A stretch of 64,000 nt of DNA, from NCBI GenBank assembly GCA_944380355.1, contig CALWHJ010000007.1, positions 8,497 through 72,496 of the forward strand. Direction: 5' to 3'. This document shows positions 14,447 to 54,704 of this stretch, one piece after another (position 1 is the first letter of the stretch; each line of letters opens with the position of its first letter). Made by a program: the position numbers and the translations under genes. The notes beneath the pieces are model-generated. The model saw only the letters and a list, made by a program, of their open reading frames with translations, had not been told where the DNA came from and did no database searches. The DNA is from an uncultured Christensenellaceae bacterium (GTDB lineage: Bacteria; Bacillota; Clostridia; Christensenellales; UBA3700).

Positions 14447-14515
14447 ACGTTTCTCCGAAAAGTTATTTCTCCGCCCTTACTTAATGCGCAAGGCGCGGAG
14501 ATTTTACTTTTTAGA

Positions 14516-20226: not shown

Positions 20227-20239
20227 GTCGATAATCAAA

Positions 20240-20365
20240 TAATTCTTTGAGGGCAGGTGAAATTCCTCACCGGCGGTAAAGTCCGCAAACGCCGCAAATT
20301 TTTTATACGGCGCCGAACAAGTGTAATTCTTGTACCGACAGTATAGTCTGGATAGGAAAAGGATA
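20240..20365 (+). promoter_or_regulatory. FMN riboswitch (RFN element)
   Basis: Conserved RFN blocks are present: AGGGCAGGTGAAATTCC, ACCGGCGGTAAAGTCCGC and CCGACAGTATAGTCTGGATAGGAAAAGG. It lies immediately upstream of a RibU-type gene. The 3' strand of P1 overlaps the AAAAGGA RBS. Confidence 0.85.
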
Positions 20366-20370
20366 CTTTT

Positions 20371-26010: not shown

Positions 26011-26180
26011 AGTTATCTTGCCTCTCTTGTAAATCTTTTAAATCTTAATCTGCTTCAAACCGATTACGCCGTATCCGTTAAGTGCGTACGCACACGTATG
26101 CATACGCACTCCCTATACGTATTAACTTACCGCGCGAACGTTATACGCTCACGCGCAAGCGGTTTATATTTATCCGAATA

Positions 26181-39221: not shown

Positions 39222-39271
39222 TTTTCTCCTGCCCAAGCAAACTCAAAAGTCTTCTTTTGCTGATTTATTTA

Positions 39272-40339
39272 TTACAGCAAATCGTACAATGCGATAGCGC
39301 AAACCGCCTCGATTACGGGCACGGCTCTTACAACTATGCAACTGTCGTGTCTTCCCTTAAGTGACAGTACTGTATTTTCTTTAGCTGCTACGTCTATCGT
39401 GTTTTGCTGAATGAAAATCGAAGGCGTAGGCTTGATTGCCACATTAAAGACAATCGGCATACCCGTAGAAAGTCCGCCCAGTATTCCGCCGTTGTTATTG
39501 GTAGAAGTTATGACTTTATCACCCTCGTATCTGAAAGGGTCGTTTGCTTCGCTGCCGTACATCTTTGTAAGGTCGTAGCCTTTGCCGAATTGCACGCCCT
39601 TGACTGCGGGCACGCTGAATAAAAGGCTCGCTAAGTGTGATTCTATGCTGTCGAAGAAAGGCTCGCCTACGCCGCCCTTTAGTCCTACCGCCGCACATTC
39701 GATAACGCCGCCTACGCTGTCGCCCTCTTCGCGCGCGGAAAGTATTGTTTCGCGCATTTTATCAAACAAACTCTCGTCAATGAGCGGAAAAGGTTTGTAT
39801 GTCAACGCGCTAAGCTCGGCGGGATTGATTTCCACACCGAAAGGCTTGTCCTTTATATCTTTAATAGACAAAATATGCGCACCTATCTCTACACCTTTTT
39901 GCCTTAAAAGCTGCTTACATATCGCGCCTGCGAATACGAGCGTTGCGGTAAGTCTGCCCGAGGAGTGTCCGCCGCCGCGGTAGTCGTTGTTGCCGCCGCT
40001 CTTCAGATAATAGCCGTAATCGCTGTGTCCCGGTCTGAATACGCTCTTGAGTTGAGCATAGTCCGAAGACTTGGTATTGGTATTGCGAATAATACCGCAA
40101 AGAGGCGTGCCCGTCGTTTTATCGTCAAAATATCCGCTGACGATTTCCACTTTGTCACCCTCTTTCCTCGGCGTGGAAAACTCGCCGCCGTTGGGAGCGC
40201 GGCGCGCCATTTCTCTCTCTATCTCTGCCATATCGAGCTTTACGCCCGCGGGAAGATTGTCGATAACGACACCCATTGCCTCGCTGTGCGATTCTCCGAA
40301 AACAGTTAATTTGATTTTATTGCCCCAAACAGTGCTCAT
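39272..40339 (-). CDS. aroC: Chorismate synthase
   Basis: 355 aa. FGESHS, RPGHSD and GGGHSSGR motifs. It overlaps the aroA stop by 4 nt. Confidence 0.95.
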   Translation of the reverse strand: MSTVWGNKIKLTVFGESHSEAMGVVIDNLPAGVKLDMAEIEREMARRAPNGGEFSTPRKEGDKVEIVSGYFDDKTTGTPLCGIIRNTNTKSSDYAQLKSVFRPGHSDYGYYLKSGGNNDYRGGGHSSGRLTATLVFAGAICKQLLRQKGVEIGAHILSIKDIKDKPFGVEINPAELSALTYKPFPLIDESLFDKMRETILSAREEGDSVGGVIECAAVGLKGGVGEPFFDSIESHLASLLFSVPAVKGVQFGKGYDLTKMYGSEANDPFRYEGDKVITSTNNNGGILGGLSTGMPIVFNVAIKPTPSIFIQQNTIDVAAKENTVLSLKGRHDSCIVVRAVPVIEAVCAIALYDLL

Positions 40340-41586
40340 ACTGCCTCCTCTTTTATCTCTCCGCCGAGTTTGGTATACACCTCGTAAAAATCGGGGTAAG
40401 ATTTAGACACGCATTCCGCATCTTTTATCCTGACTTCGCTCTCACATACGGTAGCCGCAATTGCGAGCGTCATTGCCATTCTGTGGTCTTTGTGCGAATC
40501 AACCTTTCCACCCTTAAGCTTGTATACTCCGTCGATAACTATCGTTTCGTTATATTCCTCTATATTTGCACCCAGCTTTTTAAGCTCTTCTACGGTTGAA
40601 TGAAGTCTGTCGCATTCCTTTATCCTCAGTCGCGATACGTTGACGATCTGCGTCTTGCCTATTCGCAAACAGCACGCCAGCGCGAATACGGGGATTATGT
40701 CGGGACAGTTTCCGCCGTCGAATACCAATGTTTCGTCGGGAGAAGAATCTTTGAGTTTTTGCAAAAACTCCGTTATTACCTTATCTCCCTGCAAAGACTC
40801 TTTGTTGAGTCCTATTATATCCACACCGCTTCCCAGATAATTCGCTACCTCGAAGAAAGCCGCCTGAGAATAATCTCCCTCTACGTAACTGTCGTGATTG
40901 AGATATTTCTGATTGCCTTTGACATACAGCACGTTCCCTTCTTTCTGAACGTCGATACCGTAATTTTTAAGCGCGCACAAAGTCAAATCGAGATAACCCG
41001 AAGATTGAAGATTACCCTCTATGAAAATTCTGCTGTCCCCCTGAAGAAGAGGGAGCGCAAACAGTAGTCCCGATATAAACTGCGAGCTTACCCCGCCGTC
41101 GATATAAAAATCTCCGCTCTTCAATTCTCCCTGTACGCTCAAATCGAGAAAATGGTCGGGATTATCCGCGCTGTTGTCGATATACTCTATACCTTGACCC
41201 AGGCATATATCGCGGTAAATCTCCATAGGCCTTTTGCCGAGTTTTCCTTTGCCGACAAATTTATTCTTACCGTTGTTGAGTACAAGCGCGAGAGGAAGTA
41301 AAAATCGCAAAGTCGAACCCGACTCGTTGCACTCGAATACGATATATGACGTGCGCTTTTCTGCGTGTCCGTCTACCTCGATATTGTCGGGATTATCCTT
41401 AATGTATGCGCCGAGTGAGCGCATACAGCTTATGGTCGCAATTATATCGTCGCTGTAAGCTATGTTGGCAATTCTGCTCTTTCCCTCTGCAAGCGACGCG
41501 CATATTATCTCTCTGTGCGCCATACTCTTGGACGGAGGAATTACCACTTTGCCCGAAAGTTTTTTGGGGGTAATTACAATATTCAT
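40336..41586 (-). CDS. aroA: 3-phosphoshikimate 1-carboxyvinyltransferase (EPSP synthase)
   Basis: 416 aa. PPSKSMAHR and DHRMAM motifs. Confidence 0.95.
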   Translation of the reverse strand: MNIVITPKKLSGKVVIPPSKSMAHREIICASLAEGKSRIANIAYSDDIIATISCMRSLGAYIKDNPDNIEVDGHAEKRTSYIVFECNESGSTLRFLLPLALVLNNGKNKFVGKGKLGKRPMEIYRDICLGQGIEYIDNSADNPDHFLDLSVQGELKSGDFYIDGGVSSQFISGLLFALPLLQGDSRIFIEGNLQSSGYLDLTLCALKNYGIDVQKEGNVLYVKGNQKYLNHDSYVEGDYSQAAFFEVANYLGSGVDIIGLNKESLQGDKVITEFLQKLKDSSPDETLVFDGGNCPDIIPVFALACCLRIGKTQIVNVSRLRIKECDRLHSTVEELKKLGANIEEYNETIVIDGVYKLKGGKVDSHKDHRMAMTLAIAATVCESEVRIKDAECVSKSYPDFYEVYTKLGGEIKEEAV

Positions 41587-41593
41587 ACTCGCC

Positions 41594-42640
41594 TCACTTT
41601 AAGAAAAATTCCGCGTTTGTAGGATACGTAAAGCTCTCGCCTATTTCTTTCAAAAGTACGACAAAAAGCTTTTTGCCCATATTCTTTTTATCGCTGAGCA
41701 TAGCGGATATGAGCTCTTTCGCAGGGGTAGGGTCACTTGTAGGCAAGCCGTAATTTTTGAGGATATTTTCTATCCTTTCGGCGCAGCCTTTTTTTGTCAA
41801 CCCGAGCTTTTCGCTTATTTTCGTGATAAACACCATACCTATCGCAACCGCCTGTCCGTGGGTATAGCCTTGGAATTTATAATACTTTTCGATAGCGTGT
41901 CCGTAGGTGTGTCCGAAGTTGAGAAGCATTCTCTCTCCCGTATCCCTCTCGTCCACCTCTACGACTTTGCGCTTGATATCGCAACACGTATATACTATAT
42001 CCTCGACCTTTTGCATAAATTCTTCTCTCGACTTAATACCCTCGAGAGTTTCAAAAAGTTCTTTATCCTTTATACAGCCGTATTTGATAATCTCCGCCAT
42101 ACCGTCGATATAGAATCGGTCAGGCAAATCATACAGCACGTCGGTATCGATGAATACCAGCTTGGGCTGATAAAAACTTCCTACAAGATTTTTACCCTCA
42201 GGCAAATCCACTGCGACTTTACCGCCGACCGAGCTGTCTACCTGAGCAAGCAATGACGTAGGCACTTGCACGAAAGATACGCCCCTCAAATAAGTAGACG
42301 CCACGAAACCGCCGAGGTCGCCTATCACGCCGCCGCCCAGGGTGACAATCAAATCTTTGCGAGTGAGATTGAATGCGAGCATGGACGAGTACAAAGGCTC
42401 GATAGACTTAATGCTCTTTGTCGGCTCTCCCGCCTCGAGCACGTGCAATTTACACTCGTAGCCTTTTGCGAGCAAACTGTCCGTTACGGTATTGGCAAAA
42501 ATCGGCGCTACGTTGGTATCGCTTATAACAAAGATTTTACCGCCGTCACTCTTGACGTAATCACCTATTTTATCGAGAATTTTACTGCCTATGATTATGT
42601 CGTAACTGTTTTCACCCAGATTTACTCTCAAAGATTTCAT
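41594..42640 (-). CDS. aroB: 3-dehydroquinate synthase
   Basis: 348 aa. GGGVIGDLGGF and FGHTYGHA motifs. First gene of the aro operon. Confidence 0.95.
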   Translation of the reverse strand: MKSLRVNLGENSYDIIIGSKILDKIGDYVKSDGGKIFVISDTNVAPIFANTVTDSLLAKGYECKLHVLEAGEPTKSIKSIEPLYSSMLAFNLTRKDLIVTLGGGVIGDLGGFVASTYLRGVSFVQVPTSLLAQVDSSVGGKVAVDLPEGKNLVGSFYQPKLVFIDTDVLYDLPDRFYIDGMAEIIKYGCIKDKELFETLEGIKSREEFMQKVEDIVYTCCDIKRKVVEVDERDTGERMLLNFGHTYGHAIEKYYKFQGYTHGQAVAIGMVFITKISEKLGLTKKGCAERIENILKNYGLPTSDPTPAKELISAMLSDKKNMGKKLFVVLLKEIGESFTYPTNAEFFLK

Positions 42641-42671
42641 TTATACCTCTTTTAACCGCCCTCAAACGCGC

Positions 42672-42698
42672 GCAAAACAACGCATAATCAATGCGTTT
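42672..42698 (-). terminator. Hairpin + U tract between the MATE gene and aroB
   Basis: Minus strand reads AACGCA-uugauua-UGCGUU followed by GUUUUG. A TTGAAA-17-TAATAT promoter-like motif (42708-42736) lies just upstream. It could therefore be the MATE terminator or a leader structure of the aro operon. Confidence 0.5.
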
Positions 42699-42815
42699 TA
42701 TATTATTATATTACTATAAAACAAGAGACTTTTCAAGTATATAATAATATTTAAGCCGTCTTTAAAAGCGTTTTGAAAGATTTTTTATAAATTTACTCGC
42801 TTTAACGTTTACAAT

Positions 42816-44321
42816 TCAGTCTTTATCGTCGCCGTCTTCTTTTAAATCCGAATACTCCCACAGCGTTTCGCTATCGTTTGCGCTTTTATTATCTTGCGCG
42901 CCGTTTTCTTCCGAAGTCGCGCCGTCGCTCTCTTCAGCCGTTTTACAAGAAAGCTCTTCTTCACTCTCCTTTACGGCAAGAGGTAACAGCTTTTTGCGAT
43001 ATGCAATCATCATACATATAAAGCAATAAGTCCCGCCTATAACCCAGCTTGCCGTAGGCGCCCAATACATACCGTCTATTCCCCATTTGTAATCGAAAAG
43101 ATAGGAAAACGCTATGCGGAAAATAATCGACGTAAAAGTGGATATTACGAAAGTTTTCAAAAGTCCTATGCCCTTGAATACGCCTTGACTCTGCACGATA
43201 ATACACATAAGAAAATAGCCCCAGCCTATCGCGACGGTATATCCCGTACCTGTGGCAATAACTTCGGGATTATCGTCAAAGAGCGAAACCATCCATTTTG
43301 CGCAAAGCACGGTAAAAGCCGTCGCAACGACGGAATAAACAGCCACGAATATCCAGCTTGCCTTGTACCCCTCTATCACGCGCTTATACTTATGCGCGCC
43401 GTAATTCTGCGCCGTGTAGGTAGTCAGCGCATTGACGTAACCTCGCATAGGCGTCTGTAACAACGAATCGAGGCGCGTGCCTATGTTTATACCCGCTACC
43501 GAGTTGAGAGGATAGGTATTGACCAGTCCTTGAATTGCAATTCTGCCCACGTACACGAATACTTGCTGTATGGACATGGACAGCGAATAGGAAGTGATTT
43601 CCATAACTATTTTTTTGTCAATCCTTATATCCTTGATACTCATTTTCAAGAGTTTGTATTTTTTGTTTGTGTATATAATACACAACACGGAAGACAGAGC
43701 CTGCGCAAGTACGGTCGCAAACGCCGTACCCTCTACGCCCCACTTGAATACCACGACGAAAAGAATATCCAGTACGGCATTGAAAGCTACGGACACAAAC
43801 AAAAACATAAGCGGCGTAAAGGAGTCGCCTATCGCGCGTATAGAAAAACAATAAAAGTTGTAAAGATAAGTGAAAATAGCACCCGCAAAGACTATCTTCA
43901 AGTAGTTGTCGGTATCAGTAAGAATACTTTCTTTAGTGTTGAGAAGTCTCAAAAAAGGCTTGGAAAAAGCTATGCTCGCAACACTCAAAACAAGAGTAAA
44001 TATAAGTCCTATCGCAAGAGCCGTACTCATCGTATGGCGCACTTTTTCGTCTTCGTTTGCGCCGTAATACCTCGACATAACGACACCGCCGCCCATAGCG
44101 AAACCTATAAGCAAAAAAACTACGATATTCATTACGGGCGCAGCCGAGCCGAGCGCAGCCAAAGCGTCCGTGCTGATAAATCTGCCCGCGATAATACTGT
44201 CAACAGCATTATAAAGCTGTTGACAAAAATCGCCTATTATCAAAGGCACGGAAAACTTGAGTATGGAGCTGAAAGGCTTGCCCTCTCGAAGCATATTTTT
44301 TGCGTTGATATGTGCGTGCAT
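42816..44321 (-). CDS. MATE-family efflux transporter with an acidic C-terminal tail
   Basis: 501 aa, 12-TM pattern. The start ...ILKFSVPLIIGDFCQQLYNAVDSIIAGRF is typical of MATE. Confidence 0.85.
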   Translation of the reverse strand: MHAHINAKNMLREGKPFSSILKFSVPLIIGDFCQQLYNAVDSIIAGRFISTDALAALGSAAPVMNIVVFLLIGFAMGGGVVMSRYYGANEDEKVRHTMSTALAIGLIFTLVLSVASIAFSKPFLRLLNTKESILTDTDNYLKIVFAGAIFTYLYNFYCFSIRAIGDSFTPLMFLFVSVAFNAVLDILFVVVFKWGVEGTAFATVLAQALSSVLCIIYTNKKYKLLKMSIKDIRIDKKIVMEITSYSLSMSIQQVFVYVGRIAIQGLVNTYPLNSVAGINIGTRLDSLLQTPMRGYVNALTTYTAQNYGAHKYKRVIEGYKASWIFVAVYSVVATAFTVLCAKWMVSLFDDNPEVIATGTGYTVAIGWGYFLMCIIVQSQGVFKGIGLLKTFVISTFTSIIFRIAFSYLFDYKWGIDGMYWAPTASWVIGGTYCFICMMIAYRKKLLPLAVKESEEELSCKTAEESDGATSEENGAQDNKSANDSETLWEYSDLKEDGDDKD

Positions 44322-44393
44322 AATTACCTTAATATACTATACGCCAAAAGACAGGTTTTGTTAAACGAAAACACGCGCTAATTTAAATAAAAA

Positions 44394-44419
44394 CGGAAAA
44401 AGCGGACTTTTGCCCGCTT
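44394..44419 (-). terminator. Rho-independent terminator of leuA (bidirectional-looking)
   Basis: Minus strand reads AGCGGGC-aaaa-GUCCGCU followed by UUUUUCCGUUUUU. Confidence 0.7.
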
Positions 44420-44453
44420 TTTGTTTTTAAGTGCGCATTAACCGTCAATTACG

Positions 44454-46115
44454 TTATTTCATATTTCTGTTGATTGCCGATACGAGTGCCTTGACGCTCG
44501 CTTCGATAATATCGTTGTGAATACCAACGCCCCATACGATTTTGCCCGTCTTGTTGTCCTCGATACATACGTATGCAGCCGCTTGCGATTGCGATGTCTT
44601 GGAGAGTGCGTGCTCTTGGTATTCGACTATATGATAATCTATGTCAATAGCCTTTTTCAAAGCGTTGCTGACCGCGTCGAGTCTGCCGTTGCCGTGTGCC
44701 TCGGACGTGAAAGTCTTGCCGTTGTACTCAACGGTAATAGTCGTGTCGATACCGTCAATCTGCTTGTAGTGATGCTCTATGATATTCAAAGGCTTGTCGA
44801 TATTGACGTAGTTATCCTCGAATACCTTGTATACCTCGGAGGGCTTGAGTTCCTTGTGAGCGTGGTCGGATACGCTCTTTACCTCGTAGCCGAAAGCTTC
44901 GCGCATCTTCATAGGAAGGACTACGCCGAATTGTTGTTCCATCAAGAAACCTATTCCGCCCTTACCCGACTGACTGTTGATTCTTATTACGTCGCCCTCG
45001 TACTCTCTGCCGATGTCCTTGGGGTCGATAGGAAGATAAGGCACCGTCCAGTGGTCGGGATGCTTTGCCGTGCGCCACTTCATACCCTTTGCGATAGCGT
45101 CCTGATGCGAACCCGAGAATGCCGCAAATACCAATCTTCCCGAATAGGGCTGTCTTTCGTAAACTTTCATACCCGTAACCTTTTCGTATTCTTCGACTAT
45201 TGCGGGAATATCCGAAAAATCGAGTCCGGGGTCAACGCCGTGCGAATACATATTGAGCGCGAGAGTGATTATATCCACGTTACCCGTACGCTCGCCGTTG
45301 CCGAACAAAGTTCCCTCTATTCTGTCTCCGCCTGCCAAAATACCCAGTTCACTGTCTGCAATCGCACAACCTCTGTCATTGTGAGGGTGCAAAGATATAA
45401 TGAGGTTTTGTCTGTCAATCAGGCTCTTGCACATATACTCGACCTGACTTGCATAGATGTGAGGCATAGACATAGATACCGTTACGGGCAAGTTGATAAT
45501 GACTTTCTTTTCGGGGGTAGGTTGCCATATTTTGATAACCTCGTTGCAAATATCTCTCGCAAACTCCATTTCAGTACCCGTAAAAGACTCGGGAGAATAC
45601 TCGAACAAATACTCTCCTTCTGCCTTAGCGGCATATTCCATACAGAGTTTTGCGCCGAATTTAGCAATATCGATAATCTCTTCCTTGGACTTTTTGAACA
45701 CCTGTTCACGCTGAGCGTAAGACGTAGAATTGTAGAGATGCACAACAGCCCTCTTGACGCCCTTCAAAGCCTCAAAAGTCTTTGCGATAATATGCTCTCT
45801 GGACTGCGTGAGTACCTGTATCGTTACGTCATCGGGGATAAGATTTTTTTCAATCAAAGTCCTCACAAACGTATATTCCGTCTCGCTCGCAGCGGGAAAA
45901 CCTACTTCTATCTCCTTGAATCCTACCTTACAAAGGAAAGTGAAAAACTCCAGCTTCTGCTCGAGACTCATAGGTACAACCAATGCCTGGTTGCCGTCTC
46001 TCAAATCGACGCTGCACCATATAGGAGCTTTGTCGATATACTCTTTCTTCGTCCAGTCGTTGCACTCAAAGGGAGGCATATAATATCCTCTCGTGTACTT
46101 GTCAAAGTTTTTCAT
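44454..46115 (-). CDS. leuA: 2-isopropylmalate synthase (long LeuA type with C-terminal regulatory domain)
   Basis: 553 aa. DLRDGNQ and HPHNDRG motifs, plus a LeuA dimerisation/allosteric C-terminal region. Confidence 0.9.
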   Translation of the reverse strand: MKNFDKYTRGYYMPPFECNDWTKKEYIDKAPIWCSVDLRDGNQALVVPMSLEQKLEFFTFLCKVGFKEIEVGFPAASETEYTFVRTLIEKNLIPDDVTIQVLTQSREHIIAKTFEALKGVKRAVVHLYNSTSYAQREQVFKKSKEEIIDIAKFGAKLCMEYAAKAEGEYLFEYSPESFTGTEMEFARDICNEVIKIWQPTPEKKVIINLPVTVSMSMPHIYASQVEYMCKSLIDRQNLIISLHPHNDRGCAIADSELGILAGGDRIEGTLFGNGERTGNVDIITLALNMYSHGVDPGLDFSDIPAIVEEYEKVTGMKVYERQPYSGRLVFAAFSGSHQDAIAKGMKWRTAKHPDHWTVPYLPIDPKDIGREYEGDVIRINSQSGKGGIGFLMEQQFGVVLPMKMREAFGYEVKSVSDHAHKELKPSEVYKVFEDNYVNIDKPLNIIEHHYKQIDGIDTTITVEYNGKTFTSEAHGNGRLDAVSNALKKAIDIDYHIVEYQEHALSKTSQSQAAAYVCIEDNKTGKIVWGVGIHNDIIEASVKALVSAINRNMK

Positions 46116-46162
46116 ATTTATCTCCTTTTAAAATTATTATCTTTTTATCTTAGCACCTAATA

Positions 46163-46408
46163 AAAAAGTCCCTTGCAAACAGCAAGAGACGAAATCTATC
46201 CGTGGTACCACTCTTTTTCGTATCTACGGCCAACACCGATTTACGATACCTTGACGCTATAACGGGCTTACCCGACACTCTCTTACTGTGATTGGGAGAG
46301 GCGACTCAAAGGCGAGTTGGCTTATCTGTCCTGTTGTCTCACACCTACCGACAACTCTCTGCAAAGACTTCAAAGTTAGTATTCCTTGTCGTAGTCTTTA
46401 GATATTAT
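46163..46408 (-). promoter_or_regulatory. T-box riboswitch leader of leuA
   Basis: The minus strand contains an AGAGA-type motif near the 5' end and the T-box sequence AAAAAGAGUGGUACCACGG. The terminator GUCUCUUGC-uguuu-GCAAGGGAC-UUUUUU follows (46163-46190). The 5' arm of that terminator can alternatively pair with the T-box. Confidence 0.8.
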
Positions 46409-46414
46409 GGATAT

Positions 46415-46443
46415 ATTCTATAACAAGTTTTTTCTTTTGTCAA
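46415..46443 (-). promoter_or_regulatory. Sigma-A promoter of the leuA T-box leader
   Basis: Minus strand reads TTGACA - 17 nt - TAGAAT. Confidence 0.6.
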
Positions 46444-46453
46444 GCATTTTTTT

Positions 46454-46770
46454 GCGACCGCATATATCAGCACATATTTGCGATTTTGCGCGAGCAGTTA
46501 CACTCGGTCACGTACGGCAAGTACGCTCCGCTCGTGAACTCTCTTCAAAATCGCAACTCTGCACTAATCTCTGCGGTCGCAAGTCATTTAATTTTTGCTA
46601 GTTTGGAAAAAGCAAAAATCGCACCTCTCTCCGCGCTCGCACTAAGTTTTATTATCTTCATTTAGATTTTGAAAGCAGAATACTTTATTTTGCGGTCGCG
46701 CCTTTCGTTTTTTTTACAATTTAGTATGCGCCTGTCGCGCTCGTCTGGAAAAGACAAACTCTGCACTGTT
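46454..46770 (+). repeat. Left inverted copy of the modular GC-rich hairpin repeat (complement of 51459-51753)
   Basis: 46488-46545, 46615-46642 and 46724-46766 match the reverse complement of 51662-51719, 51625-51652 and 51533-51576 respectively, in colinear order. A nested long hairpin is formed by GCGACCGCA (46454-62)/TGCGGTCGC (46572-80) and TTGCGATTTT (46478-87)/AAAATCGCAA (46547-56). Confidence 0.85.
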
Positions 46771-46776
46771 CGCTCA

Positions 46777-47183
46777 CCTCGACAAAATACCCACGCTTCC
46801 GAAGTGTCGAAAGCGTAAGGCAAAATGTCGGGTTCGCTCTATACCGACCAAACGAAACGGTGTATATTCGACAAGCGAATAAAACCGTTTGTCGGTACTA
46901 TCTTCAAGCGGATTACGGATTTGACAGCCTCGACAAAATACCCACGCTTCCGAAGTATCGAAAGCGTAAGGCAAAACGTCGGGTTCGCTCTATACCGACA
47001 AAGCCGTAATAGAGTGGTAAGGATAACGGCTTTTTGAGATTGATTGCGAAGGGCGCATACTTTGCGTATGTAACCGAGCAAGAATATCGCAATAAAAGGC
47101 GCTAGGCGTGCCGCTATATTACGGCGCAAACGAAACGGTGTATATTCGACAAGCAAATAAAACCGTTTGTCGGTACTATCTTC
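46777..47183 (+). repeat. Duplicated hairpin units A (72 nt x2) and B (57 nt x2)
   Basis: A1 46777-46848 vs A2 46928-46999 has 2 mismatches. B1 46849-46905 vs B2 47127-47183 has 1 mismatch. Each unit contains internal stems: ACGCTT...AAGCGT in A, and CCGAC(C)AAACG..AACGG...CCGTTTGTCGG in B. Confidence 0.9.
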
Positions 47184-47346
47184 GTGCGACCGCAGAGATT
47201 AATCGTTACTAACCACCACGCGAGCGCGGAGAGTGGTGTGATTTTGTGAATTTTAAGAGAGTTCGCGAGGGCGCGTACTTGCCGTACGTAACCGAGCGTA
47301 ACTGCTCGCGAAAATTCGCAAAGGCGCGCTGCTATACGCGCTCGCC
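47184..47346 (+). repeat. Internal direct copy (D1) of the modular hairpin repeat, flush with the DUF47 gene stop codon
   Basis: 47220-47346 aligns with 51627-51753 at about 90 percent identity by eye. It ends at 47346, one nt before the TAA stop (47347-47349, minus strand). Confidence 0.9.
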
Positions 47347-47958
47347 TTATAGCGAATTTAGGATATCAAGAAGATAATCCATCGCCACATCCGCCTCATC
47401 TGCCGTAGTATTCAAGTGACGGTAAACTTCCCTGTACTTGAAAATTGCGGATACGTTGTTGCTGTCAAAAAGTTTTGCAAGCGCTTTGTAATAGTTGGCA
47501 CCCATTTTGTTTTCGAGACTCTTGACCTTGATAGCCTCGTCCTTTGCGATTGCCTTGTGCTTTTCCATACTAGCTACGGCTTTCTGGATATGCTCGGTAA
47601 TCTCGTAGAGAATACCGACAAGGCGCACCATATCGGAATTAGGGCTGATTTTGAAAAGGCGCATTTCGTCAACCGCCGTCTTTGCGTAGTCGAGAATTTC
47701 GTCAAGCTGACGGGACAGGTCGAATATGTCGTTACGCTCCATAGGCGTGATAAAGGTACGGTTGAGTTCGTCGATAAGAATACGTCTTGCCATATCGCCT
47801 TCGTCTTCTATCTTGATTACCTCGTCACCGTATGCTTCGTGATTTTCTTCACCTACGCTGCTGCAATATTTGTACAGTGCTTCCATACCTCTTTTGGTAA
47901 TCTCGCTCTGCTTTGCAAGCAAATCAAAAAAGTTTACTTTTTTTCTGAAAAGTTTCAT
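47347..47958 (-). CDS. DUF47 / PhoU-like phosphate transport regulator (TIGR00153 family)
   Basis: 203 aa, all-helical. It follows a PiT transporter gene, the usual pairing for this family. Confidence 0.85.
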   Translation of the reverse strand: MKLFRKKVNFFDLLAKQSEITKRGMEALYKYCSSVGEENHEAYGDEVIKIEDEGDMARRILIDELNRTFITPMERNDIFDLSRQLDEILDYAKTAVDEMRLFKISPNSDMVRLVGILYEITEHIQKAVASMEKHKAIAKDEAIKVKSLENKMGANYYKALAKLFDSNNVSAIFKYREVYRHLNTTADEADVAMDYLLDILNSL

Positions 47959-47971
47959 ATACTGCCCTCCG

Positions 47972-49000
47972 TCACACGAAAATCGCTCTCAATATCAAGC
48001 ATATCACCGCACCTATTGCCATTGCAACAGGAAAAGTGAAAATCCAGCTGGAAAAAATCTTTTTAGCGCGTCCCCAGCGCACCGCGCTTATTCTGTCGGC
48101 GATACCTACGCCGATAATACTCGAAGAAACCACCTGACCCGTGCTTACGGGAATACCTGTAAACGAGCAAGTGAGTGCAACCGTGGCCGTCGAAAGCTGT
48201 GCGACGTACGACTGAAGCGTACCTACCCTGTATATTCTCTTGCCGACGGTATAGATAAGTTTGTAACCTCCAAACAACAGACCTGCCATTATCGCCACGG
48301 ACAATACGGCAACCGTCCAGAAATCAAAGGTATAAGTCTGAGTGTCCTGCCCCTTGCATACGGCAAGAGCGAGAAGGTAAATACCCATAGATTTTTGCAC
48401 GTTGTTGATAGATATGGAGGTACTCAGAAGCACTACGTTGAAGACCTGAGCCCCCTTGAAAAACTTCTTGACACTCCTGTCCATTCTGTAACAGATAACG
48501 TGAAAAAGCTTGCTGAGCAAAAAGCCTACCGCCATACAAACCAGCGGTGTAGCAAATACCATAAGAATGACTTTGAGTCCGACCAAATTCCAGTTGATAT
48601 TTCCAAAACCGAAACTGGCAAGACCCGCGCCTACCAGACCTCCGAGCAACGTATGCGAAGTACTGTTGGGTACCGAGGTAAGCACGCTTACAGTCGACCA
48701 CGAAAGCGTAGCAAGCATAGTGGACAAAAGGAAAATAAATCCCTCTTTTTCGCTTATGCCGACAAAAGCTTCTTCCTTGACGAGATTACCTACCGTGCGC
48801 GCAACGCTGTCGCTTTTGAGCAAAAAGCAAATTATAATCGGTGCGATAAGTTTGGTTGCTCCCGAAATAACGATTGCATACTGAGGCTTAATGGCGCGTG
48901 TCGCAACGCAAGTAGCGACGGCGTTTGCTCCGTCGGAAAAACCCATATAAAACGTGTAGGCTATCGCCAAAATGAAGATAACTACTATGTATGCGTCCAT
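47972..49000 (-). CDS. pit: Inorganic phosphate transporter, PiT family
   Basis: 342 aa, multi-TM. GFSDGANAVATCVATR and GQVVSSSIIGVG signature repeats. Confidence 0.9.
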   Translation of the reverse strand: MDAYIVVIFILAIAYTFYMGFSDGANAVATCVATRAIKPQYAIVISGATKLIAPIIICFLLKSDSVARTVGNLVKEEAFVGISEKEGFIFLLSTMLATLSWSTVSVLTSVPNSTSHTLLGGLVGAGLASFGFGNINWNLVGLKVILMVFATPLVCMAVGFLLSKLFHVICYRMDRSVKKFFKGAQVFNVVLLSTSISINNVQKSMGIYLLALAVCKGQDTQTYTFDFWTVAVLSVAIMAGLLFGGYKLIYTVGKRIYRVGTLQSYVAQLSTATVALTCSFTGIPVSTGQVVSSSIIGVGIADRISAVRWGRAKKIFSSWIFTFPVAMAIGAVICLILRAIFV

Positions 49001-49331
49001 ACCGCCTCTTTATACAAAATACGGCAAAACCGACGCTTTGCCGAGTAATTTCGCTTATGATATAATATCTTACTATATAATATTATAATATTTCAATGCA
49101 AAATGCAATATTTTTTATGGATTTTTTATGTATGTTTATGTCGACTTTTTCCAGAGTATTATAATCATAATTTATTACTTACGCTCTATATAAATAAAAA
49201 TTGAGTATATTTTAACAAAATTATTTGATATTTTATTCATTGCTCTATTTGTCATAAATTCCGTTTTATTCAAAAAACAGTATAATTTAAAGCTTATCTT
49301 CCGGGAAGTTTGCTATCGAATAAAACCTAGC

Positions 49332-50564
49332 TCAGTTGTAATAATCAAGCACTATCCGCTGAATCGTATTGTACATTATATTGTAATTAATGACTACATT
49401 CCCCTCTTCGTCAACAGTTTCTTCCCCATCTATCTCGGGAAGCTCGACATATGAGCCTGTACCATCCTCCTGTCCTTGCAATTTGAGATACAAATCATTG
49501 AAAAAATTGCCTACTACTGTCATAAAATCGTGTTCGTCCCACCACTTTCTGCAATACTCTTTCTCTATTCTGTATGCACTGTGAGTGGGATAGTTGACGG
49601 TGTAGTAATTAGGGTCTACGTTGTAACATATAAAGGTAAAGAGAAATCCCATATTATCCAGATAAAAACTGTATTTGAGATAGGGGTCGCCGCTGTTGAG
49701 AAGCACGTATGCCGCAAGCGCGTTTGCCTCGTCCTCTCTCATTACGCCGTGAATATGAGCAAATTCATGCGCTATAGTAGACGCTTTTTCTACCATAGGC
49801 ATATCCTTGTTGTAGCCCGCTTCCGCCGTAGGTACAAACGATATACCCATTATTCCGAAGCTGGCCATAATACCGCTGGAGATTACAGGTTTTGCCTTGG
49901 CGGTATAATCGAAATAATAATCGTCCGTCACAAGTCTTTCGTAAGCGTCGCGAATAACTTCCCTTAGCTGTTTGTCCGTATAAGGACAAATCGCGCGACC
50001 GTCGGGATAGGTGCCGAGCTGCTCTACCGTCGAGTTGAAGTCCTCAATTGCCGCGATATAGGTATTGACGGCGACTTCGGTTGACGCCGTTTTACTCTCG
50101 TAGACGGGTATGGGCGCACGCTCTCTGTTGTAAGCAAACCCCGCAACGAATATGTACAGGTTTGCCACCCAAACTGCGGCTATTGCTATAACTATAAGCA
50201 CGCGGCGCGAATACGCTCCGTACTTCTTGCAAAAAAGTACAATCGACGCTACGATACCGCCTATCACTCCTATCACGCAGAGAGTGGCAAGTACCTCGAA
50301 TACGTTAAAACCGACTACGGAATAAAACCTGCCTGCTACGCTTACGTAGGCATTGACCAAAGTCCTGCAAATCCTCTCGCACACCGCGCTATTCGTACGG
50401 AAAATCAGCAAAATACACAGCCACAGCACAAGTACGCCCAAAGTCAACAGCATTACAAAAGTAGTGCCGCTGATTTTTACTTTTTTATTATCGGCCGTGT
50501 CTGTCTGCGCTGCTTTCTCTTGCAAATATTGTTCTTGTTCGCACTGTTGAATTTGCTCGTCCAT
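49332..50564 (-). CDS. DUF3810-like membrane protein with an HExxH metalloprotease-like motif
   Basis: 410 aa with 3 N-terminal TM helices and an AHEFAHIHG motif. The overall layout is as I recall for DUF3810 in Clostridia. Confidence 0.7.
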   Translation of the reverse strand: MDEQIQQCEQEQYLQEKAAQTDTADNKKVKISGTTFVMLLTLGVLVLWLCILLIFRTNSAVCERICRTLVNAYVSVAGRFYSVVGFNVFEVLATLCVIGVIGGIVASIVLFCKKYGAYSRRVLIVIAIAAVWVANLYIFVAGFAYNRERAPIPVYESKTASTEVAVNTYIAAIEDFNSTVEQLGTYPDGRAICPYTDKQLREVIRDAYERLVTDDYYFDYTAKAKPVISSGIMASFGIMGISFVPTAEAGYNKDMPMVEKASTIAHEFAHIHGVMREDEANALAAYVLLNSGDPYLKYSFYLDNMGFLFTFICYNVDPNYYTVNYPTHSAYRIEKEYCRKWWDEHDFMTVVGNFFNDLYLKLQGQEDGTGSYVELPEIDGEETVDEEGNVVINYNIMYNTIQRIVLDYYN

Positions 50565-50762
50565 ATCTATATTTTAGCATAAAAGAATAACCCTTTTCAA
50601 TAGCAAAAGCTTTTTTATATCTACCTTTTACGTTTCACCACGCAAGTTATGCAAGCATATAATGTAGCGGTACGCATAACGTACCCCGCCCTTTAGAGCA
50701 ACTCAGTACATACCCGCTAAGGCAACTCTTGAACTTTCGGGTAAAACACAAAGGAGACTAAT

Positions 50763-51326
50763 ATGTTCTGTTATAATCATTGTTTAAACAACAGCACAAA
50801 CTTCAACAATCAAAGTTTCTCTTCGTGGAGCAGAACAAACTACGGTTGCGGCTGGTACTGCTGTCCCAACTGTTGTTATGCATTCGCAAACAACTCTGTA
50901 AGCACTCTGCCCGCTCCGGCATCCAACACCGCTGTACAGAATATCGCATATTTTACAAATCCGACGGCTACGGATATAGCTGCCGATGCGGTTATTCCCG
51001 TTAACCTCTCCAAACAAATCGGTAATGCGATTACTTCAAGCGGTACGGGCGTATTGCTCCAATCGGGCACATATAAAGTTACGTATTCCCTGACCGGTAA
51101 CCCTCAAACGACCGGCACATCGACCGTAGGAGTACAGCTCAACGGTACGACACAGCCCTTGTTTTCTCAGTCCGAGCAGGTATCCGCTGCGGGCGATAAC
51201 TACAATCTCTCGGCAAGCGGACTTGTAACCGTAACTTCCGACAACAGCATACTCACACTCAACAACCTCGGAGCAAACGCTCAGAATTTCTCCAACGTAA
51301 ACCTCGTTGTACAGAAAGCAGCGTAA
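50763..51326 (+). CDS. Cys-rich N-terminus + BclA C-terminal (TNF/C1q-like) domain protein; probable spore-surface protein
   Basis: 187 aa with an AAAGGAGA RBS and a strong terminator downstream. The C-terminal ~135 aa parallel the B. anthracis BclA CTD block by block: AYF.., IPVN, GNAITS, GTYKVTYSL, VQLNGT and the ending LVVQKAA. There are no collagen GXX repeats. The N-terminus has 7 Cys in 38 aa. Confidence 0.65.
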   Translation: MFCYNHCLNNSTNFNNQSFSSWSRTNYGCGWYCCPNCCYAFANNSVSTLPAPASNTAVQNIAYFTNPTATDIAADAVIPVNLSKQIGNAITSSGTGVLLQSGTYKVTYSLTGNPQTTGTSTVGVQLNGTTQPLFSQSEQVSAAGDNYNLSASGLVTVTSDNSILTLNNLGANAQNFSNVNLVVQKAA

Positions 51327-51351
51327 TGTAAATCACTCCGAAATAAATACG

Positions 51352-51378
51352 CCGTCCCACTAAGTGGGACGGTTTTTG
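51352..51378 (+). terminator. Rho-independent terminator of the BclA-CTD gene
   Basis: CCGTCCCAC-taa-GTGGGACGG followed by TTTTTG. Confidence 0.85.
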
Positions 51379-51458
51379 TTTAGTACTCCATTTGTGTATA
51401 TGTTTCACCACTCTGTTTATCAACTTTGCTCTATAGTAATATTAACTATTACTAGCTA

Positions 51459-51753
51459 CGTGCAAGCGCGGAGATTGGTACAGAGTTGCGATTATAAATT
51501 CATTGCTAAACTTTGTGCAAGCGCGGAGAGTGGTGTAGAGTTTGTCTTTTCCGGACCGAGCGCGACAGGCGCATACTTTGCGTATGTAACCGAGCGCGAG
51601 TGTACCGCTAATATTACATACTTCGTGCGAGCGCGGAGAGTGGTGTGATTTTGCGAATTTTAAGAGAGTTCGCGAGCGGAGCGTACTTGCCGTACGTGAC
51701 CGAGCGTAACTGCTCGCAAAAATTCGTAAAGGCGCGCCGCTATACGCGCTTGC
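51459..51753 (+). repeat. Right copy of the modular GC-rich hairpin repeat (D2), flush with the spoIVA stop codon
   Basis: It contains three GTGCRAGCGCGGAGAKTGGT modules (51459, 51515, 51625) and the 127-nt block 51627-51753, which is shared with 47220-47346. It ends at 51753, one nt before the TAG stop of spoIVA. Confidence 0.9.
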
Positions 51754-53232
51754 CTATAAAAGGATGCACAAAACCCCACCCTTACCTTCATTGACAATGC
51801 GTGTAACCGTCTTGCGAAGCTTTCCTCTTACGTCTTCGGGCATTGCCATAAGCTTGTTGTTCAAGCCTTCTTTTGCGATTACGTTGAGAGACTTGCCGAA
51901 CATATTGGTATTCCAAATATCCTGACCGTCTTCGCCGAATTCGTCGAGCCATGCGCGAAGGTTGTCTTCGCTCTGCATATCGCTGTTGATTACGGGATTG
52001 ACTTCGGTTTCGACGTCAACGCGCATGATATGCATTGCGGGAGCGGACGCTTTGAGTTTTATGCCGTATCGCGAGCCTTTTTTGACGATTTGAGGTTGCT
52101 GAAGCTGTAAGTCGTCGAGCGTAGGCGTAACTACTCCGTAACCGTACTTTTCTACGTCCTCGAGAGCTTGTTTGACTTTGTTATACTTTTCCTTAGCCTC
52201 GGCAAATTCTTTGATATATGCGACAAGCTGACACTCGTCGGCAATCTCTACGCCGCACTGCATGGAAAGCACTTTGTAGAAAAGCTCGGGACGAGGCGAA
52301 GTCTTTATCATGCACTTGCCCGTGCCGTAATCTACGGATACCTGAGAATCTTTTTGCAAATATTCGTCGTCTTCGAAAAGGCTGACAAGACGCTTGTAGT
52401 CGCCCATGACCTTCATATCGTTGACTACCGAAACCACCTTGTCGATGATATGCGAAATAACCTCGCTCGTACGAGGCAATGCCTGCATCCAAGTAGGCAT
52501 ATCTATATCCACGCTTCTCAAAGGGAATTGCAAGAGTACGCTTTCGAGAAGTTCCGTCATCTCCTGAGCATTCATTTCCTGCACGTTTTTAAGAAGTACG
52601 GGTATACCGTATTCGTCGGCAAGTCTGTCGCGAAGTCTTATGCTTTCGGTATCCTGAGGATGGCGGGAATTGAGGAGCATTACGAAAGGTTTGTCGAGTT
52701 CTTTCATCTCTCTCACTACTCTTCTCTCGGCTACTTCATATCCCTCTCTCGGCAAATCGAGAACAGAGCCGTCGCTGGACACTAATACGCCGATAGTAGA
52801 ATGGTCGGTGATTACCTTGCTTGTGCCGTATTCAGCCGCCTCGGTAAAAGGCATTTGCTCATCACTCCAAGGTGTATTGACAAGTCTGTCATTGTCCCCC
52901 TCTTCAAAGCCCTGCGCTCCCGCAAAGGGATAGCCGACGCAATCGACGAGTCTCAATTTTGCTCTGCACTCGGGAGCAAGCTCGACTTCTACTCCGCCGT
53001 CAGGCACGAATTTGGGCTGAGTGGTCATAACCGTTTTGCCGTCTGCCGACTGAGGCAATTCGTCGATAATTCTCTCCTTATGGTAGTCCTCTTGGAGATT
53101 AGGCAATACCATAGTCTGCATAAACTTAGTGATAAAAGTCGATTTACCGCTTCTTACGGGACCGACTACTCCTATATAAATGTTTCCTTGAGTACGTGTA
53201 GAGATATCCTGATAAAGATTTGATTTTTCCAT
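51754..53232 (-). CDS. spoIVA: Stage IV sporulation protein A (spore coat morphogenetic ATPase)
   Basis: MEKSNLYQDISTRTQGNIYIGVVGPVRSGKSTFITKFM closely parallels the B. subtilis SpoIVA N-terminus. Start at ATG 53230-53232 with a GGAGGAG RBS. The ORF track extends to 53274. Confidence 0.9.
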   Translation of the reverse strand: MEKSNLYQDISTRTQGNIYIGVVGPVRSGKSTFITKFMQTMVLPNLQEDYHKERIIDELPQSADGKTVMTTQPKFVPDGGVEVELAPECRAKLRLVDCVGYPFAGAQGFEEGDNDRLVNTPWSDEQMPFTEAAEYGTSKVITDHSTIGVLVSSDGSVLDLPREGYEVAERRVVREMKELDKPFVMLLNSRHPQDTESIRLRDRLADEYGIPVLLKNVQEMNAQEMTELLESVLLQFPLRSVDIDMPTWMQALPRTSEVISHIIDKVVSVVNDMKVMGDYKRLVSLFEDDEYLQKDSQVSVDYGTGKCMIKTSPRPELFYKVLSMQCGVEIADECQLVAYIKEFAEAKEKYNKVKQALEDVEKYGYGVVTPTLDDLQLQQPQIVKKGSRYGIKLKASAPAMHIMRVDVETEVNPVINSDMQSEDNLRAWLDEFGEDGQDIWNTNMFGKSLNVIAKEGLNNKLMAMPEDVRGKLRKTVTRIVNEGKGGVLCILL

Positions 53233-53408
53233 AAACTCCTCCATTTTTTGTTCGCTAAAATATATGCCGTACAATACGAGGATATTACAAAAAAAATACT
53301 GACTTAAAAAAAGCGCGAATAAACAAACTCGCGTATTTATATAAATATTATTTTATCGTATTAAAAAGACTAACAACATTATGATAAGATTATTGATTTT
53401 GCAAATCG

Positions 53409-53437
53409 TAAAACAAAGGCGGACTAAAAATCCGCCT
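53409..53437 (-). terminator. Rho-independent terminator after the lipoprotein gene
   Basis: Minus strand reads AGGCGGA-uuuuuag-UCCGCCU followed by UUGUUUUAC. Confidence 0.75.
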
Positions 53438-53459
53438 TTTGTATCGATTAATTATAAAA

Positions 53460-54560
53460 TCAATTATCTATTAATTCTGCCGTCAAGGTCAAGCCGTCCG
53501 CGGTGTAGGATATAATGTAAACTCCCGTATCTCTGTCCGTACTTATACCCGTAAAGAAACCTGCCTCTGCGCCGGGCAATACGACATTCATTATTGCAAA
53601 ATTCTTATATAGATACATTTGTCTGTCTTCGTCATAGTATTCGTAACCTACCGCAATAGTAAATTCGTGGTCGTGAGTATACTTGAATTCGTACTCAAAA
53701 GTAGTATTCTCAGCAGAATACACAAAGTCGGCAAACTGCGTTTCCTTGTACACGCTGCCTATCTGATAATCGTTGTCGGTAATCCATATCCTGAGATTTT
53801 CATACTCTCCCGTCAATTTGGACATATCGACGACTACTTTTTCGGTATAGAGATTTTCGGGAGTAACCTCACCGAAATCTACGACTTCCAATGTCTTGAC
53901 AAGCGCTCTCGTCCCCTCTTTGAACACCAACCTCGCCGTTCCTTCGCTAATCTTGGTGAGATCTATATCGAAAGTTGCGCCGGTGGCACACCAACCGCTG
54001 ACTACCGTCGTCGCTTTTGCTCCCGAAATTGCCTCGTTGGGAATCACGTCGGGATTGAGAGAATATATCTCGACCTCGGTCATATATCCTTCGACGTTCG
54101 TAGTGTTGGTAACGCCGTCTGTACCGAAATCCACCTCAAAAGTCTGAGAGGTGTTGATAGTATCGTCGCCGTCTTCCACCGCGGCTAATTGTTCACAGAC
54201 TTTACTCCAAACCATCGTATCCGACTCGTCCACATCGGGAGACGCTTTGAGCGTAACGGAAACAGTGACGTTCTGCGCGGGCATGGTAAACTCGTACTTG
54301 CCGCTTGTATTGAGAGTACAAGCCGTGCCGTTTGCCGTAACGCTGTCAATTGCAAAGAATTCTTCTGCCGTTACGGTAAGAACTACATTGTCTCCCGCCT
54401 TAGCGTTTTTGTGCGAGCATACAACGCTGAAGTTATCGCCGCTATTGAGGGTAATATCGTAATAAGTCGGCTCTGTGCTAGTACCGCCGCAAGCGGCAAA
54501 AGCGACAAGCGCGGTAACCAAAACGAGCGACAAAGCGATTGCAATACATAATTTTTTCAT
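53460..54560 (-). CDS. Putative lipoprotein with an N-terminal divergent InlB-B-repeat-like Ig domain
   Basis: Signal peptide plus lipobox (MKKLCIAIALSLVLVTALVAFAACGG). The segment YDITLNSGDNFSVV...AGDNVVLTVTAEEFFAIDSVTANG...FTMPAQNVTVSVTLK fits the B-repeat pattern. Start at ATG 54558-54560 with an AGGAGAG RBS. Confidence 0.7.
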   Translation of the reverse strand: MKKLCIAIALSLVLVTALVAFAACGGTSTEPTYYDITLNSGDNFSVVCSHKNAKAGDNVVLTVTAEEFFAIDSVTANGTACTLNTSGKYEFTMPAQNVTVSVTLKASPDVDESDTMVWSKVCEQLAAVEDGDDTINTSQTFEVDFGTDGVTNTTNVEGYMTEVEIYSLNPDVIPNEAISGAKATTVVSGWCATGATFDIDLTKISEGTARLVFKEGTRALVKTLEVVDFGEVTPENLYTEKVVVDMSKLTGEYENLRIWITDNDYQIGSVYKETQFADFVYSAENTTFEYEFKYTHDHEFTIAVGYEYYDEDRQMYLYKNFAIMNVVLPGAEAGFFTGISTDRDTGVYIISYTADGLTLTAELIDN

Positions 54561-54704
54561 AATCTCTCCTTTAGCTGCGTACAAAAAGCTCAAAACAGTA
54601 AAATTTGCTTAAACGCGGTATTTGAATGCCTATCTTTAGACGCAGCAAACATCTTACTATTATTTTAACGCATACTTACGTTTTTGTCAATGCCGTCGCA
54701 TACG

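Follow-up and report, generated by a model that had tools for sequence, protein, structure and literature searches.

A palindromic repeat family at gene ends in uncultured Christensenella-like gut bacteria

Many of the repetitive extragenic palindromic (REP) sequences of E. coli lie close to stop codons, and hairpin-forming miniature inverted-repeat transposable elements (MITEs) are found as Correia/NEMIS in Neisseria, as ERIC/IRU in the enterobacteria, and as BOX, RUP and SPRITE in Streptococcus pneumoniae. To our knowledge, none of these MITEs has been reported to sit systematically at stop codons in a single orientation, and repeats of the REP type, including the REP doublets that form hairpins (REPINs), have been well studied in Proteobacteria but hardly described in Clostridia. 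In REPINs, conserved ends flank a variable, compensating spacer, and the putative mobile unit carries a 5' single-stranded tail, with about 6 bp of its 3' end left behind on excision (PMC3116915). Here we analyse a 64,000-nucleotide stretch of DNA from an uncultured Christensenellaceae bacterium (contig CALWHJ010000007.1, hereafter the window), in which copies of a hairpin-forming repeat abut the stop codons of a DUF47/PhoU_div gene and of spoIVA.

These repeats are members of a previously uncatalogued palindromic family, about 130 bases long, of uncultured Christensenella-like gut bacteria; a literature search for Christensenella repeats or MITEs returned nothing relevant. Our preferred interpretation, which we hold to be probable by a modest measure, is that of a REPIN- or MITE-like palindromic family that is kept by insertion and recombination at the DNA level and is passively co-transcribed into 3' untranslated regions (UTRs). 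We assign it to the REP/REPIN- or MITE-like class because it forms an extragenic hairpin, present in many copies and restricted to a lineage, in which the ends are conserved and the interior compensates, and because it leaves stubs, builds ordered arrays, shows nesting and is mosaic. We infer that the units move; consequences at the RNA level would be secondary.

Structure and distribution of the repeat

Copies A (47220-47346) and B (51627-51753) had been recognized as direct repeats in the initial annotation of the window, and so they proved to be, with 93.8% identity over 129 nt; both lie 3' of minus-strand genes. When three or fewer mismatches are allowed, the window has five occurrences of a 19-mer taken from the end of the repeat (GCGAGCGCGGAGAGTGGTG), and 100 shuffled sequences have none. 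That annotation had also set each copy one nucleotide away from a stop codon. This holds for copy A, whose junction reads, in the direction of the gene, CTA TAA, a single G and then GCGAGCGCG, so that 1 nt separates its sense-3' end from the TAA of the DUF47/PhoU_div gene (47347-47958, coming after a gene for a PHO4-family phosphate transporter). Copy B, by contrast, is 0 nt from its gene, the junction reading TTA TAG and then directly GCAAGCGCG. Overlooked at first were two other full copies, one inverted (copy C, 46454-46580) and one divergent (46984-47133), along with several truncated ones (Table 1). Copy A has a diverged 5' extension, and the core of copy B is preceded by a 17-nt 5' extension (AATATTACATACTTCGT). 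Copy C is about 80% identical to A and B, with compensatory changes in its basal stem (GCGACCGCA/TGCGGTCGC), and lies directly upstream of the leuA promoter, ending 10 nt before the -35 box. The divergent copy, which carries a GCATAC/GTATGT variant of the apex, lies between units of a second repeat family (family 2, described below).

The three-hairpin anatomy first proposed for the repeat does not survive folding: every copy forms one long imperfect hairpin (z-scores -6 to -9), and a CACCAC...GUGGUG hairpin that had been taken for a general part is present in copy A only. We aligned about 20 copies from the window and related genomes and built a covariance model from 18 members. The unit begins with a 5' tail of 17 nt, for which the consensus in this species is ATATTACnnACTTCGT; the hairpin of about 127 nt follows. 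Its G+C-rich basal stem of 9-11 bp (GCGAGCGCG/CGCGCTCGC) has covarying variants, among them CCCTTG/CAAGGG and the pair seen in copy C, and leads to an invariant internal loop in which GGAGAG stands opposite GCTATAC. Above this loop are two middle stem modules, each with at least four versions that are freely combined while both arms always match, and a conserved apical hairpin (GCGTACT-nnnn-GTACGTRAC) that covaries with GCATAC/GTATGT. In the RNAalifold structure 96.0% of cells are paired, compared with 82.7% in shuffles and 25-53% when the partners are slid, and both sides have changed in 19 of 35 pairs, so that the stems covary whereas sequence conservation is found mainly in the loops. An Rfam scan of the window at the gathering threshold matched only a T-box and an FMN riboswitch, both outside the elements, and at E ≤ 10 nothing on the elements themselves; a K-turn reading of the conserved loop was rejected on sequence grounds.

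The structure is specific to one strand, as 97 wobble cells (G-U/U-G) stand against only seven A-C cells, and several wobbles are fixed in 16-18 of the 18 sequences. In 77 of 79 distinct copies the sense strand, as we call the better-folding one, has the more stable fold (mean -65.3 versus -48.3 kcal/mol), and the covariance model scores copies A, B and C at 149-167 bits on this strand versus 39-42 bits on the other. For A and B the sense strand is the plus strand of the window (-71.8 and -71.4 kcal/mol; z-scores -6.8 and -7.5), which is antisense to both adjacent genes, and the fold of the mRNA strand is weaker, at -47 and -45 kcal/mol; for copy C it is the minus strand (-69.5 kcal/mol; z-score -8.9). 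The initial annotation had implicitly placed the structure on the mRNA strand, and it is the complementary strand that folds better, by about 17 kcal/mol. Strand-biased deamination was rejected as an origin of this asymmetry in wobbles, since at A and B the C-to-T biases of both transcription and replication would, judging by GC skew, act in favour of the other strand.

A strand-specific fold of this kind raises the alternative, in our view rather improbable, that the unit is a functional structured RNA made from the sense strand, acting as a cis-antisense small RNA (sRNA) at the 3' end of a neighbouring gene or, when co-oriented, as a 5' leader. The internal loop and apical hairpin would then be protein-binding sites, and the repeats would be gene copies, not selfish DNA. 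Loops conserved in sequence among covarying stems would fit such an RNA, as would the fixed wobbles (U-G in 17/18 and 16/18, G-U in 18/18), which leave only the sense strand fully paired, and so would some eight copies that lie sense-oriented directly upstream of a ribosome-binding site (RBS) and would be transcribed as sense RNA. The unit has, however, no conserved promoter before it, the sequence upstream of its 5' tail being unconserved, no terminator after it and no match to an Rfam family, while its tens of copies per genome, its stubs, its nested insertions and its swapping between strains are how a repeat behaves.

Another RNA-level role, proposed in the initial annotation, is termination of transcription. 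The units resemble intrinsic terminators in placing a G+C-rich stem downstream of a gene, but they differ in lacking a U-tract, in the length of the stem-loop (~127 nt) and in that terminator-like hairpins lie farther downstream. A GC hairpin with a U-rich tract, read as a terminator in the initial annotation, went unscored on either strand in our terminator scans, which found no hairpin with a T-run inside A or B and no terminator-like site on either strand within 47202-47351 or 51610-51759. The sites that did score lie at 46941-46970 and 46790-46819 (inside family 2) and at 51351-51373, the last of which is likely to be the real 3' end of the transcripts of spoIVA and of a gene for 187 amino acids. 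A promoter scan likewise gave no conserved promoter in or at the units, nor any promoter on the sense strand of A or B. Because these scans produced neither a terminator nor a conserved promoter, we rejected both a terminator cassette and a self-promoted sRNA as primary readings. What stands of the earlier proposal is its more general part, a propagating REP/BOX-like cassette at gene 3' ends in place of independent terminators, for copies occur at many loci in several species, most of them at stop codons. They are not confined to this locus, as a merely local duplication would be.

Searches of genomes and metagenomes show a family of limited taxonomic range. Scanned for the exact pattern, a set of genomes with one per species gave 40 loci. 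Some 19 of these are in Christensenella or in metagenome-assembled genomes (MAGs) of Christensenellaceae and uncultured Clostridia; the remainder are in high-GC organisms, about as many as chance alone would give for a G+C-rich 19-mer. The genome of uncultured Christensenella sp. CASERZ01, which matches 38965-54688 of the window at 93-95% identity, contains many additional full copies at unrelated loci. A structure-aware pattern added 66 full-length loci from gut, rumen and similar metagenomes and found no family member on viral contigs, and BLAST found none on plasmids. The family is thus multi-copy (tens of copies per genome), extragenic and lineage-restricted, occurring in several species together with decayed singlets and stubs.

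Two shorter sequences in the window, at 26128-26165 and 14486-14505, had been listed as related modules. Neither was matched by the covariance model at E ≤ 10 with filters off or by BLAST at E ≤ 1. The first (26130-26165) is a small G+C-rich inverted repeat located 20 nt after the stop of a gene for 458 amino acids (26181-27557), and its loop, GTATAA, resembles the GTATAG motif of the family. The second (14468-14505) is also a small G+C-rich inverted repeat, TCTCCGCCCTTAC...GCGCAAGGCGCGGAGA, followed by a T-run on the plus strand. They may be unrelated hairpins or very decayed remnants.

Position at gene ends

The positions of the 79 distinct full-length copies were tabulated relative to stop codons, as the initial annotation had suggested, counting open reading frames (ORFs) of at least 90 codons or running to a contig end. 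In 51-54 of the 79 copies, a long convergent ORF on the opposite strand stops 4-13 nt before the loop motif, so that the stop codon abuts or overlaps the element, at or inside the base of the hairpin. No such association with ORF stops was found on the opposite side of the element. About eight further copies, including those at L003, L009, L090, L104, L108 and L114, are sense-oriented, their 3' end being followed within a few bases by an RBS and ATG. It is always the same end of the element, sense-3', that faces the gene.

The spacing differs by type of stop. After TAA or TAG the stem begins at once (d = 8-11). TGA lies five bases from the loop motif, inside the stem, where the distal arm pairs with 2.9 of its three bases and with 2.6 of the three coding bases before it. 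Taking all types of stop together, 15 of 50 copies have a fully paired stop codon, compared with 4.7 +/- 1.7 when arms are permuted among copies, and the distal arm copies the stop codon together with up to 13 coding bases. The junction follows the stop codon to the nucleotide, whichever base of the element is joined to it. In species with 81-82% SpoIVA identity the gene order is the same and 21 kb contain no family member. The protein C-termini of element-free relatives are identical (GVLCILL and ILNSL before the stop); therefore, the element sits exactly after the native stop, leaving the protein unaltered.

Such exactness might be expected of an mRNA 3'-end module, in which a stop-flush hairpin would act as a barrier to 3'-to-5' exonucleases, or would hold up or modulate the ribosome at termination, and selection would keep the hairpin flush. 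Effects of this kind have reportedly been observed for E. coli REP sequences near stop codons (Newbury 1987; Liang, Rudd and Deutscher 2015). We regard this explanation as unlikely here: the mRNA is the weaker-folding strand in all but two of the 79 copies, which is opposite to the outcome of selection on an mRNA hairpin, there is no U-tract, related species lack the element at the same genes, and truncated stubs and nested junk pile up beside the copies. On its side are the exact placement at stops of about two-thirds of the copies, the pairing of TGA stops and the coding bases before them into the stem, the excess of fully paired stop codons over permuted arms, the occupation of both the DUF47 and spoIVA sites in nine of nine strains despite changes of occupant (see below), and a hairpin that on the mRNA strand still has about -48 kcal/mol.

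The nucleotide-exact junction at stops, the copying of stop and coding bases by the distal arm, and the docking at RBSs as well lead us to mention a bolder idea, that placement of the element, or selection on it, depends on a process by which the end of the ORF itself is read. We think this decidedly unlikely. If true, it would make the element a new kind of mobile hairpin that seeks gene boundaries, for example by recombination templated on the gene-proximal arm or by insertion coupled to translation or transcription; alternatively, it would be a device, made of sense-strand RNA or of single-stranded DNA, for pairing with stop-codon regions.

Strain turnover, arrays and mobility

To follow the repeats over short evolutionary distances we compared nine metagenome-assembled strains with an identical DUF47 protein and 98.7-100% identical pit-duf47 DNA (loci L117-L134). 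The spacer between DUF47 and leuA measures 538, 697, 1133, 1231 or 1358 nt depending on the strain, and that downstream of spoIVA 358-839 nt, a variation (window 46402-47346 and 51327-51753) made entirely of differing numbers and types of repeat unit. A full unit is flush with the spoIVA stop in all nine strains and with the DUF47 stop in seven, and a sense copy precedes the leuA promoter in all nine. Both stop-codon sites are occupied in every strain, by members of subfamilies that differ from one strain to another. Along with the occupant, the final two codons and the stop vary too, reading TCG CTA TAA G as against TCT TTG TAA or TAG up to the junction. At larger distances, the 93-95% identical relative carries a member of only 70% identity at its spoIVA stop, and two species that share the basal stem at an rlmB-like leader site differ in the interior of the unit.

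The arrays are polar, with a complete unit beside the gene and older units farther out. In five of six junctions the older unit starts at (T)AGCGG, having been cut inside the GTA^TAG loop motif (CCGCTA^TAC in sense orientation). The older array member next to copy B (51517-51610) is an example, being cut at its gene-proximal, sense-3' end at ...CCGCTA, where the 5' extension of copy B starts. Stubs of 4-14 nt from an earlier unit lie between the stop and the full unit at five loci (L016, L035, L003, L006 and L132), most clearly at L132, where TAG is followed by GCGACCGCGTATAG and then by GCGACCGCA. At the distal end of the spoIVA arrays, a 55-nt unit consisting of the terminal part of an element arm plus tail is present in one to three tandem copies; this number is strain-dependent (L126, L127, L130, L131), which suggests slippage or unequal exchange. 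About 50 nt past the DUF47 stop, two strains (L117/L126 and L120/L129) have a recombinant unit in which a gene-proximal arm is fused, at a shared GCGATTTTG, to an arm of opposite orientation. Arm fusions of this sort are what palindromes would be expected to yield on recombining internally or with one another.

Polar arrays with a recurrent breakpoint in a loop motif are also what one would look for in attC-like, folded single-strand recombination sites, at which a site-specific recombinase would cross over inside the CTA^TAC motif, adding ORF-less units gene-proximally while the last ~11 nt stay resident at the site. The L132 stub is as expected for insertion after TATAG, the basal stem is kept at the rlmB-leader site in two species with different interiors, and the structure is strand-specific with conserved unpaired bases. 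We nevertheless consider this alternative very unlikely. The units have no R-box consensus (GTTRRRY/RYYYAAC) and no cassette ORFs, the adjacent genes being housekeeping ones; no integrase or other tyrosine recombinase occurs near the arrays, although an integrase was not sought genome-wide; and the match of the distal arm, too, to the site-specific basal sequences would not follow from a simple insertion of cassettes. As read from the alignment, the ends of the palindrome are GCGAGCGCG...CGCGCTCGC with no GTT core, and an attC identity for the conserved loop was rejected on sequence grounds.

In the DNA-level interpretation that we prefer, the units would live on the boundary between gene and intergenic spacer, where the occupancy of a site would be stable and the occupant exchanged between strains. 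New or converted units would arrive gene-proximally and push older units outward, the latter being cut at the recurrent point in the loop motif, and the conserved segments would double as recombination anchors, giving rise to arm-symmetric mosaics. The most likely engine would be single-strand-specific, hairpin-dependent cutting and joining, comparable to what has been proposed for REPINs and for IS200/IS605-type elements, in combination with ectopic and inter-strain homologous recombination at the conserved segments, which would homogenise the family. The units would be co-transcribed within long 3' UTRs, as a hairpin of about -48 kcal/mol beginning at the stop codon, and would not themselves terminate transcription.

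Several observations weigh against this interpretation. First, no Y1/HUH transposase was found by phmmer at E ≤ 10 among 3754 ORFs of the window and the loci, about 0.7 Mb of Christensenellales DNA, using approximate queries for IS200 TnpA and the E. coli REP-associated tyrosine transposase (RAYT). The only recurrent transposase, which emerged when multi-copy ORFs were clustered, is an IS110-family gene (PF01548 + PF02371) at four syntenic loci, and its link with the element looks coincidental. Second, the outer boundaries of the units have no terminal inverted repeats, the 5' tail having no inverted counterpart, and there is no consistent direct target-site duplication, at most an ambiguous TA or CTA. 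Third, the nine strains offer no clean case of a filled versus an empty site within the species, which is why we infer transposition instead of claiming to have seen it, and recombination alone could explain the differences between strains. Fourth, GC skew indicates that at A and B the leading-strand template is the strand that folds better, where a lagging-strand-template model of the IS608 type predicts otherwise. Finally, a selfish-DNA model by itself gives no reason for the precision at stop codons, and does not account for the mirroring of stop and adjacent coding bases by the distal arm or for the better fold of the non-mRNA strand. It is because these last features, together with the docking at RBSs, lack an account under that model that the functional-RNA, 3'-end-module and attC-like explanations were kept alive.

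Two other routes of insertion were considered and rejected. TA-duplicating, IS630-like insertion fits some flanks, which have TA or CTA on both sides, yet the terminal inverted repeats are lacking. IS110-family elements are known to target palindromic repeats, and the hairpins may be an insertion target of the IS110-family gene noted above. This gene (at L010, L036, L072, where it spans 2936-4174 on the minus strand, and L086) has a conserved promoter and structured leader upstream of it and lies no more than 50-150 nt from a hairpin unit in three of the four loci. We rejected the hairpin as the cognate of this system, whether as bridge/seek RNA or as target, because the insertion sequence has its own conserved leader and because, where the transposase is elsewhere (L086), the hairpin is still found at the stop of the neighbouring gene.

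How, then, does the family compare with described repeats? On the one hand, the likeness to REPINs is extensive: a hairpin of ~100 nt whose ends are conserved and whose spacer varies in a compensating way, inverted units with compensatory changes, an extragenic location, tens or more copies per genome, restriction to a lineage with vertical inheritance, remnants in the form of singlets or stubs, and ordered tandem clusters. Common to both are also a 5' single-stranded tail on the putative mobile unit and a few 3' bases left behind (PMC3116915). On the other hand, the family lives in a Firmicute host (Christensenellales); conservation falls on an internal loop and an apical hairpin, not on two short REP palindromes; the alignment has no 5' tetranucleotide of the GTAG type (GTAG in E. 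coli), the conserved flank being a one-sided 17-nt tail; no RAYT turned up in the ~0.7 Mb sampled with the approximate queries; and orientation is strict, with a nucleotide-exact junction at the stop. With the REP sequences and bacterial interspersed mosaic elements (BIMEs) of E. coli the family shares a location at gene or operon 3' ends and mosaic clusters that include other repeat modules, but a REP unit is 35-40 nt, its proximity to stop codons is statistical and not flush, and BIME motifs bind gyrase or integration host factor. Hairpin MITEs are like the present units in being long RNA/DNA hairpins of 100-170 nt that are co-transcribed with their neighbours, in modular composition (BOX) and in orientation-dependent effects (ERIC); they differ in having terminal inverted repeats, TA or other target duplications and, for some, an identifiable parent insertion sequence, none of which was seen here.

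Neighbouring features and implications

The repeats and associated features of the two array regions are collected in Table 1. A truncated copy was also located at 51462-51498. The 127-nt block at 46641-46767 is present in the window and missing from the 93-95% identical relative.

Table 1. Hairpin-family units and adjoining features in the window
Feature	Position	Strand	Remarks
Copy A	47202-47351 (hairpin core 47220-47346)	+ (sense, better-folding)	148.6 bits on +, 38.8 bits on -
Copy B	51610-51759 (core 51627-51753)	+	166.6 bits; sense-3' end flush with spoIVA TAG
Copy C	46448-46597 (core 46454-46580)	- (inverted relative to A and B)	149.6 bits; third full copy
Fourth full-length copy, divergent	46984-47133	+	77.2 bits, E 4e-18; outside the training set of the model
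Older array member, different interior subfamily	51517-51610	+	51550-51609, 35 bits
55-nt stub unit, 5'-arm fragment (GCAAGCGCGGAGATTGGTACAGAGTTGCGAT) plus spacer	51447-51501	+	
C-type 5'-arm stub (GCGACCGCAGAGATTA)	47186-47205	+	just distal to copy A
5'-arm stub (GTGCGAGCGCGGAGAGAGGTGCGATTTTTGC)	46615-46645	-	distal to copy C
127-nt block with decayed interior family fragment	46641-46767	-	46697-46765 weak, 12.4 bits
TAA stop, DUF47/PhoU_div gene	47347-47349	-	abutted by copy A
TAG stop, spoIVA (51754-53274)	51754-51756	-	abutted by copy B
Bidirectional terminator-like hairpin	51351-51373	.	distal to the repeat array

Family 2, which is unrelated to the hairpin family, occurs in minus orientation at 46768-46913, 46928-47002 and 47120-47188. 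Its units are about 146 nt long with two hairpins each, and the second hairpin together with TATTTTGTCG scores as terminator-like on the minus strand. The copies in the window are 95-99% identical to copies at six unrelated CASERZ01 loci, because of which family 2 looks recently active. At L006 (1160-1430), ~270 nt of family 2 stand nested in place of the apex of a hairpin unit. A family 2 junction, GCGAGCGGAG joined to TATTTTTATCYATCCGATTAAAA, recurs at L006:7370, L035 and L023, the same junction being found at four loci in all.

The leuA gene (44454-46115), downstream of copy C, is T-box-controlled: a T-box leader (Rfam RF00230, 99.4 bits) occupies 46182-46401 on the minus strand, and the promoter, TTGACA-17-TAGAAT, lies at 46415-46443. 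The FMN riboswitch (Rfam RF00050, 98.7 bits) is remote from the repeats, at 20239-20367 on the plus strand.

With its clean positional rule, its strand-specific structure and its turnover among strains at 99% identity, the family is a good system in which to learn how palindromic repeats find and hold gene ends, and it would also allow one to test if such repeats influence mRNA decay or the termination of translation. Being hypervariable, the arrays can serve as markers to type strains of the Christensenellaceae, a family of interest for the gut microbiome, and they are likely break points in metagenome assemblies.

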